64,000 nucleotides of DNA from Escherichia coli (lineage in GTDB: Bacteria; Pseudomonadota; Gammaproteobacteria; Enterobacterales; Enterobacteriaceae), in NCBI RefSeq assembly GCF_003334355.1, contig NZ_QOWP01000018.1, one strand, 5' to 3'. The notes below the pieces were generated by a model. The model did not search any database. It saw only the letters and a program-made list of their open reading frames with translations, and was not told the origin of the DNA. Shown piece by piece: positions 16,962 to 17,000 of the stretch. Each line of letters begins with the position of its first letter. Within the stretch, counting starts at the first letter, position 1. The position numbers and the translations under genes are program-made.

Positions 16962-16968
16962 TGAATGG

Positions 16969-16993
16969 TGCCGGATGACGTAATGTCATCCGG
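16969..16993. other. Perfect 10-bp-stem hairpin at the convergent ybeL / rihA junction
   Basis: gccggatgac / gtcatccggc with 5-nt loop; no clear U-tract. Confidence 0.4.
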
Positions 16994-17000
16994 CGAGTTG

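Follow-up and report, generated by a model that had tools for sequence, protein, structure and literature searches.

A REP-like hairpin occupies the ybeL-rihA junction of an Escherichia coli at the site of the K-12 hscC cluster

In the 64,000-nucleotide stretch of Escherichia coli DNA analyzed here (the window; RefSeq assembly GCF_003334355.1, contig NZ_QOWP01000018.1), the convergent genes ybeL and rihA stand exactly 39 bp apart from stop to stop, and this short spacer (positions 16962 to 17000) takes the place of the 7,976 bp, from ybeQ to hscC, that K-12 has at the same site. The account that we consider likely as a whole is that the source of the window is an HS-type E. coli of phylogroup A carrying an empty ybeL/rihA allele that was exchanged by homologous recombination, that has the ancestral type of architecture, and that contains a REP-like hairpin. 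The arrangement is already present in long-published annotated genomes (CFT073, HS, IAI39, and LF82), as well as in close to a thousand further complete ones, and as a phenomenon it is ordinary, a polymorphism of an accessory cluster between core genes. We found no literature describing this particular presence/absence difference between ybeL and rihA.

The limits of the junction are set by two open reading frames. ybeL (16479 to 16961, plus strand) encodes a 160-aa DUF1451/zinc-ribbon protein that is 100% identical to its K-12 counterpart by tblastn, and its TAA stop codon lies at 16959 to 16961; rihA (17001 to 17936, minus strand), an annotated coding sequence, encodes a 311-aa pyrimidine-specific ribonucleoside hydrolase whose stop codon lies at 17001 to 17003. 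The RefSeq gene ends agree in strain AR_0369, which has a junction identical to that of the window. The two genes are contiguous, and no remnant of the cluster is present in the 39-bp spacer, the same state as in HS, CFT073, and IAI39. Over 1,039 bp, the window matches E. coli HS (NC_009800) at 99.9% identity; the HS junction has the same flanks, orientation, and hairpin spacer and differs from that of the window in essentially nothing. CFT073, LF82, and IAI39 have the same flanking genes in the same convergent orientation and keep the hairpin, but their spacer is a 44-bp variant with a 5-bp insertion, and this B2/F allele is ~7 to 8% different from the window over a 119-bp junction query.

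A sequence-only reading of the window had described the 39-bp gap and its perfect 10-bp-stem hairpin, both of which were borne out (the hairpin at 16970 to 16994), and had named seven K-12 genes between ybeL and rihA. MG1655 (NC_000913, 672000 to 686000) has exactly those seven, namely ybeQ, ybeR, djlB, ybeT, ybeU, djlC, and hscC. Homology between the window and K-12 stops 1 base after the ybeL stop codon and resumes 1 to 2 bases before the rihA stop codon, so the whole 39-bp spacer, rather than being split by an insertion, has been replaced by the 7,976 bp. The K-12 HscC/DjlB/DjlC cluster, absent from the window, is thus the alternative allele at the same site.

In K-12, this cluster has a GC content of 46.9%, against 51 to 53% in its flanks, and contains an internal duplication of a DUF1266 plus J-protein module at ~67% nucleotide identity. 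HscC is a specialized Hsp70 that works with the J-proteins DjlB and DjlC (Kluck et al. 2002, as reviewed in PMC8215388); Cd2+ sensitivity of cluster mutants has been reviewed (PMC8215388), the distribution of HscC has been described as sporadic (Mayer 2021 review), and the cassette has been noted in Salmonella LT2 and K-12 (PMC6935094). The K-12 cluster annotation includes no integrase, transposase, recombinase, or tRNA, no flanking direct repeats or target-site duplication were seen at the cluster borders, and the nearest tRNAs are ~13 kb away. Measured against an integrase-mediated island, the cluster shows the variable presence and the atypical composition but neither a mobility gene nor att repeats, and the word island suits it only loosely, as a name for a variable block of lower GC content. 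Nor did PADLOC return a meaningful match to a known defense system among the seven K-12 proteins, the only hits being marginal 50-residue Sel1-to-PtuA matches, none of them significant alone. Escherichia sp. E1V33 and Escherichia whittamii have exactly the same cluster borders, and the insertion is therefore old. In Escherichia sp. MOD1-EC7003 (10578 to 12916), ybeL and ybeQ are separated by a further 2.4 kb that contains two ORFs without an NCBIfam match (344 and 321 aa) and a 93-aa J-domain ORF, the last of which indicates that the cluster can grow by adding J-domain modules.

The spacer of the window is dominated by the palindrome GCCGGATGAC-GTAAT-GTCATCCGGC (16970 to 16994). Its arms, at 16970 to 16979 and 16985 to 16994, are 100% complementary around the 5-nt loop GTAAT, which gives a perfect 10-bp stem, or 11 pairs on the plus strand when a U.G pair is counted. 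A 63-nt RNA that includes the hairpin (16950 to 17012) folds at -23.7 kcal/mol, compared with -13.3 ± 2.4 kcal/mol for shuffled sequences (z = -4.3), and none of 200 dinucleotide shuffles folded as well. The hairpin folds as RNA on either strand (-20.9 and -19.9 kcal/mol), and the 44-bp empty allele of CFT073, LF82, IAI39, and M1/5 retains it with one stem position as G.U on the plus strand.

The arms of REP elements follow the consensus GCC(G/T)GATG ... CATC(C/A)GGC. These conserved arms are present in the hairpin, which is extragenic and lies between the stop codons of convergent genes, so that it shares with the REP/BIME elements of enterobacteria both the arms GCCGGATG...CATCCGGC and the position, REPs being typically extragenic and placed either between convergent genes or at the 3' ends of operons. 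It is unlike them in being only 25 nt long with a perfect stem that is followed by GAGTT, where an imperfect palindrome of ~35 to 40 nt with GTAG/CTAC, the end recognized by RAYT, would be expected, and in having no GGCCTAC (GTAG) end. It also departs from the expectation of many dispersed copies: the 119-bp junction query was found at a median of 1 place per genome, the exact hairpin sequence is single-copy per genome, and only one other element in the 64-kb window has its arms. The most fitting description of the hairpin, to judge by its sequence, is a REP-like palindrome that has degenerated or been shortened. Elsewhere in the window, a REP pair resembling a BIME occurs at 41939 to 41968 (GCCGGATGGGGCGTTTACGTCGCATCCGGC) and then 42001 to 42030 (TTGCCTGATGCGCTACGCTTATCAGGCCTAC), and the former of the two shares its 8-nt arms with the ybeL-rihA hairpin.

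A terminator/promoter scan called no promoter at the spacer and no intrinsic terminator either, the latter because the stem is present with a T-run on neither strand. An Rfam search of 16800 to 17200 at a permissive threshold gave no family for the hairpin, the matches being chance eukaryotic and archaeal ones with E values above 0.8. By analogy, the hairpin most likely acts like other REP-type stem-loops between convergent genes, in that the ybeL transcript and the rihA transcript would each carry it, folded, at the 3' end, where it would shield them from 3' exonucleases; it may also weakly stop read-through. Such a 3' stem-loop role for both transcripts is the most likely one on these grounds.

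The sequence-only reading had further taken the hairpin to mark the empty site and had suggested looking for the same hairpin at the borders of the K-12 island. The former idea holds, and the hairpin is found in both empty alleles. The latter test is negative: a search of the whole K-12 interval, borders included, returned 0 matches at up to 3 mismatches, so that the hairpin does not qualify as a border or attachment sequence. Both K-12 borders instead have terminator-like hairpins that are supplied by the cluster and are different from that of the window. A possible remnant at the right K-12 border, where ATGACGT(G) is shared with the left arm and loop, was considered and rejected, since Salmonella has the surrounding stretch, GACCACC...GTGGTGATCTTAATCAATGAC, as a conserved part of the cluster upstream of hscC, with a different gene after it.

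That the cluster is variably present, as had been proposed, is plain from the population. Among 5,426 complete RefSeq E. coli genomes, ybeL and rihA are contiguous in 965 (17.8%), and 4,449 (~82%) contain cluster DNA, so that the two states, 5,414 genomes together, account for nearly all. At least 80% of the K-12 cluster is covered in one place in 3,663 genomes, and in ~786 it is shortened or interrupted (<80%). The empty-site reference strains are HS (phylogroup A), CFT073 and LF82 (B2), and IAI39 (F). The 44-bp allele occurs in CFT073, LF82, and M1/5 (all B2) and in IAI39 (F), and 881 genomes fall at 90 to 95% identity to the 119-bp junction query, which is the band of these listed 44-bp genomes. 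The 39-bp allele is present in roughly 60 to 73 genomes (an estimate by subtraction, with at least 60 matched), including the commensal HS. One sampled ST131 genome (H115) was not empty at this site.

In many of the genomes that carry it, the cluster has decayed. O157:H7 NE122 (17070 to 23164) has internal stops in ybeQ and djlC, and in 55989 (23173 to 26181) hscC is interrupted by the IS4-family element ISVsa5; these pseudogenes suggest relaxed selection on the cluster. Two different shortened forms, both ~5.2 kb, were seen in NZ_OZ043945.1 (2570 to 7586) and NCTC10537 (2570 to 7595); one of the two forms has lost most of ybeQ together with ybeR and djlB, and the other has fused the paralogous ybeR-djlB and ybeU-djlC modules.

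Other genera were surveyed by a YbeL scan of species-representative genomes that yielded 80 loci, E. albertii and E. fergusonii, the close outgroups of most weight here, not being among them. Adjacency of ybeL and rihA is not universal within E. coli, as the frequencies above make clear, but in other genera it is usual where rihA is present, as in many Citrobacter, Salmonella enterica subsp. arizonae, Kluyvera, Pseudocitrobacter, and Enterobacter; outside Escherichia, the cluster was at the ybeL site in no genus among those 80 loci. Many of the short ybeL-rihA spacers, chiefly in Citrobacter, S. arizonae, Pseudocitrobacter, and Kluyvera, hold REPs that start 8 to 12 nt after the ybeL stop codon, the same offset as that of the GCCGGATG arm in the window, and the window hairpin aligns in position with the REPs in the Citrobacter and Kluyvera spacers. 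In Citrobacter sp. FP75, the spacer has a short palindrome almost the same as that of the window, GCCGGATGG-TATCG-CCATCCGGC; the C. braakii spacer has a canonical REP ending in GGCCTAC, and that of S. arizonae has a REP pair. In Kosakonia, Yokenella, Siccibacter, and some Citrobacter, rihA is missing and ybeL adjoins gltL, an adjacency found in enough genera and species to indicate that rihA itself is variably present across the Enterobacteriaceae.

Salmonella enterica subsp. enterica has a diverged form of the cluster at the same ybeL/rihA site. Its HscC is 83% identical to that of K-12 and the other cluster proteins are 46 to 63% identical, a range of 46 to 83% that compares with 91 to 95% for the flanking YbeL, RihA, and GltL; the evolution of the cluster proteins is several times as fast as that of the core proteins around them. 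The Salmonella cluster is without ybeT. In S. enterica (8687 to 9925 and 17741 to 19669), an extra 412-aa ORF with no Pfam match lies between hscC and rihA, and the far side of ybeL is occupied by a PrpR-like sigma-54 activator and not by leuS. Both allelic states, empty and cluster bearing, are accordingly found in Escherichia and in Salmonella.

Other cargo was seen downstream of ybeL as well. A chaperone-usher fimbrial operon (usher match E = 4e-242, chaperone E = 3e-67) lies between ybeL and rihA in Citrobacter sp. MGH106 (10552 to 16827) and between ybeL and gltL in Citrobacter sp. Cu233 (10536 to 18736), where no rihA was detected. Leclercia sp. (10559 to 13917) and Klebsiella oxytoca (10838 to 14350) have a two-partner-secretion pair in this position, consisting of a ~600-aa protein with a filamentous-hemagglutinin N-terminal (TPS) domain and a 500- to 556-aa partner. 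Integration or recombination hotspots flanked by core genes have reportedly been described by Touchon et al. in 2009 and Oliveira et al. in 2017, and their features, a variable block between core genes, different cargo in each genus, and raised diversity in the flanks, are all seen here.

The window and K-12 differ in more than the presence of the cluster. They are exactly alike, with 0 differences, from 14,214 to 16,514, which takes in the sequence through leuS; ~190 differences (1.3 to 4.2%) follow over 16,514 to 28,679, and past that point the next 2.3 kb hold only 2. The divergent tract (16514 to 28679) is thus ~12.2 kb long and 1 to 4% from K-12 between near-identical flanks, divergence outside it being 0 to 0.2% in most 500-bp bins. 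It starts inside ybeL, so that the empty site is at its left end, and goes on through rihA, gltLKJI, a rhomboid-protease gene, and lnt to ybeY. The rihA-gltI haplotype of the window is rare, being found at an identity of at least 99% in 147 of 5,422 genomes, and the 97.6% identity of K-12 sits on a broad plateau of many genomes. At position 16931, near the junction, T occurs only in the window and LF82, the two empty-site sequences from E. coli in the comparison, and C occurs in the other six, among them the empty-site Escherichia L006.

Several further observations concern this part of the chromosome. Within an unaligned segment of the tract (21379 to 23735), an intact 625-aa ORF (21726 to 23603, plus strand) lies between gltI and lnt; the annotation of other strains makes its product a rhomboid-family intramembrane serine protease. 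It is missing in K-12, which has IS5D there, and is a second presence/absence difference within the 12-kb tract; CFT073 and LF82 also have the gene, 55989 and AR_0369 have it in frameshifted form, and O157 NE122 and IAI39 lack it. A second patch at 1 to 3% divergence from K-12 occurs at 10500 to 13000 (cobC, nadD, and holA) in an otherwise near-identical background and is probably another recombination tract. L006 (NZ_JAATUR010000029.1, labeled E. coli SCPM-O-B-8794, here called Escherichia L006) has a 39-bp spacer close to that of the window; its divergence from the window is 5 to 10% across holA and leuS, more than E. coli strains normally show, but only 1.2 to 3.6% around ybeL, a pattern that could reflect either mislabeling of the species or exchange of the allele between species.

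These results can be drawn together in the account favored at the outset. The presence of REPs at the same offset in the spacers of Citrobacter, S. arizonae, and Kluyvera argues that the empty site is the ancestral-type allele and not a deletion scar, so that a 39-bp spacer with a REP-like core would represent the ancestral type of arrangement of the site in the Enterobacteriaceae. In K-12 and most other E. coli, an old, lower-GC insertion of 8 kb, encoding HscC, DjlB, DjlC, Sel1, and DUF1266 proteins, would have taken the place of the whole spacer. The two alleles would then segregate within E. coli, lineages swapping them through homologous recombination within the conserved core genes on either side and not by means of island-encoded machinery. 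The pattern of divergence points to the ~12-kb tract as a homologous-recombination import that carried the empty allele, and we infer from it that an HS-type phylogroup-A ancestor exchanged its cluster allele for an empty one with an empty-allele donor. Two considerations weigh against this account. The cluster is also old and widespread, having the same borders in other Escherichia and a diverged form in Salmonella; its presence in other Escherichia and in S. enterica subsp. enterica means that it could predate the Escherichia-Salmonella split, in which case the empty alleles would be losses. REPs are, moreover, mobile and could in principle recolonize a deleted site. The tract is likewise not proof of a single event, since the rihA-gltI region is 1.5 to 4% divergent in all E. 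coli pairs compared.

A precise local deletion, by which an ancestor with a K-12-type cluster lost it and the hairpin spacer is either a scar or a REP that arrived later, would fit the prevalence of the cluster in ~82% of E. coli, in the close relative K-12, and in sister Escherichia species, and also its evident decay (the ybeQ and djlC pseudogenes of O157, the IS in hscC of 55989, and the two internally deleted forms). We nevertheless regard it as improbable, given that the spacer contains no cluster-derived sequence and aligns in position with the REP spacers of cluster-free genera, that the K-12 borders have no repeats able to mediate precise excision, and that the flanks contain an imported-looking tract; independent deletions, furthermore, would not reproduce what is essentially the same spacer in phylogroups A, B2, and F and in the divergent Escherichia L006. 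If exchange rather than deletion is accepted, the window and K-12 are not formally told apart as the recombinant lineage by their divergence, which is symmetric and by itself silent on which of them changed. The empty state could have been inherited vertically in the HS-type clade, with K-12-type strains of phylogroup A having imported the cluster together with a rihA-lnt haplotype, and the empty site of the early-branching groups B2 and F would agree with this. Such a history is unlikely, though it deserves to be kept in mind: it is the right-flank haplotype of the window that is rare and that of K-12 that lies on the plateau, and the 39-bp allele is known from some tens of genomes, against thousands with the cluster. 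The window is therefore the lineage that we take to be recombinant. A further possibility is that a mobile genomic island integrates into and excises from this site and uses the hairpin for attachment or recombination; the multi-cargo character of the site (the fimbrial operon of some Citrobacter and the two-partner-secretion pair of Leclercia and Klebsiella) speaks for it, as does the fact that REPs are known targets of some insertion sequences. The cluster nevertheless has no annotated integrase, transposase, or recombinase, the K-12 borders neither duplicate the hairpin nor have it nearby, they show no target-site duplication, and the spacer is replaced and not split, so that this explanation is largely refuted and has only a very slight chance of being correct.

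Beyond the preferred account of a recombined, ancestral-type allele, a more speculative extension, which we think rather doubtful, is that the REP spacer and the cluster form a long-lived two-allele polymorphism that spans species, perhaps maintained by balancing selection on a costly Hsp70-based conflict or defense system, and that the spacer 3' of ybeL is perhaps a REP-marked hotspot for multiple cargo.

The practical value of these observations is modest, and they open no long-standing question. They do show that the HscC/DjlB/DjlC system of K-12 is dispensable in nature, as it is missing from ~18% of complete E. coli genomes, including those of major B2 and F pathogens and of the commensal HS, and is often degraded elsewhere. 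Cluster-linked traits, for instance the Cd2+ sensitivity seen in mutants (PMC8215388), are accordingly not to be assumed for strains like that of the window. The site as a whole would provide a clean example of the turnover of accessory genes by way of recombination in core flanks rather than by a mobile-element mechanism.
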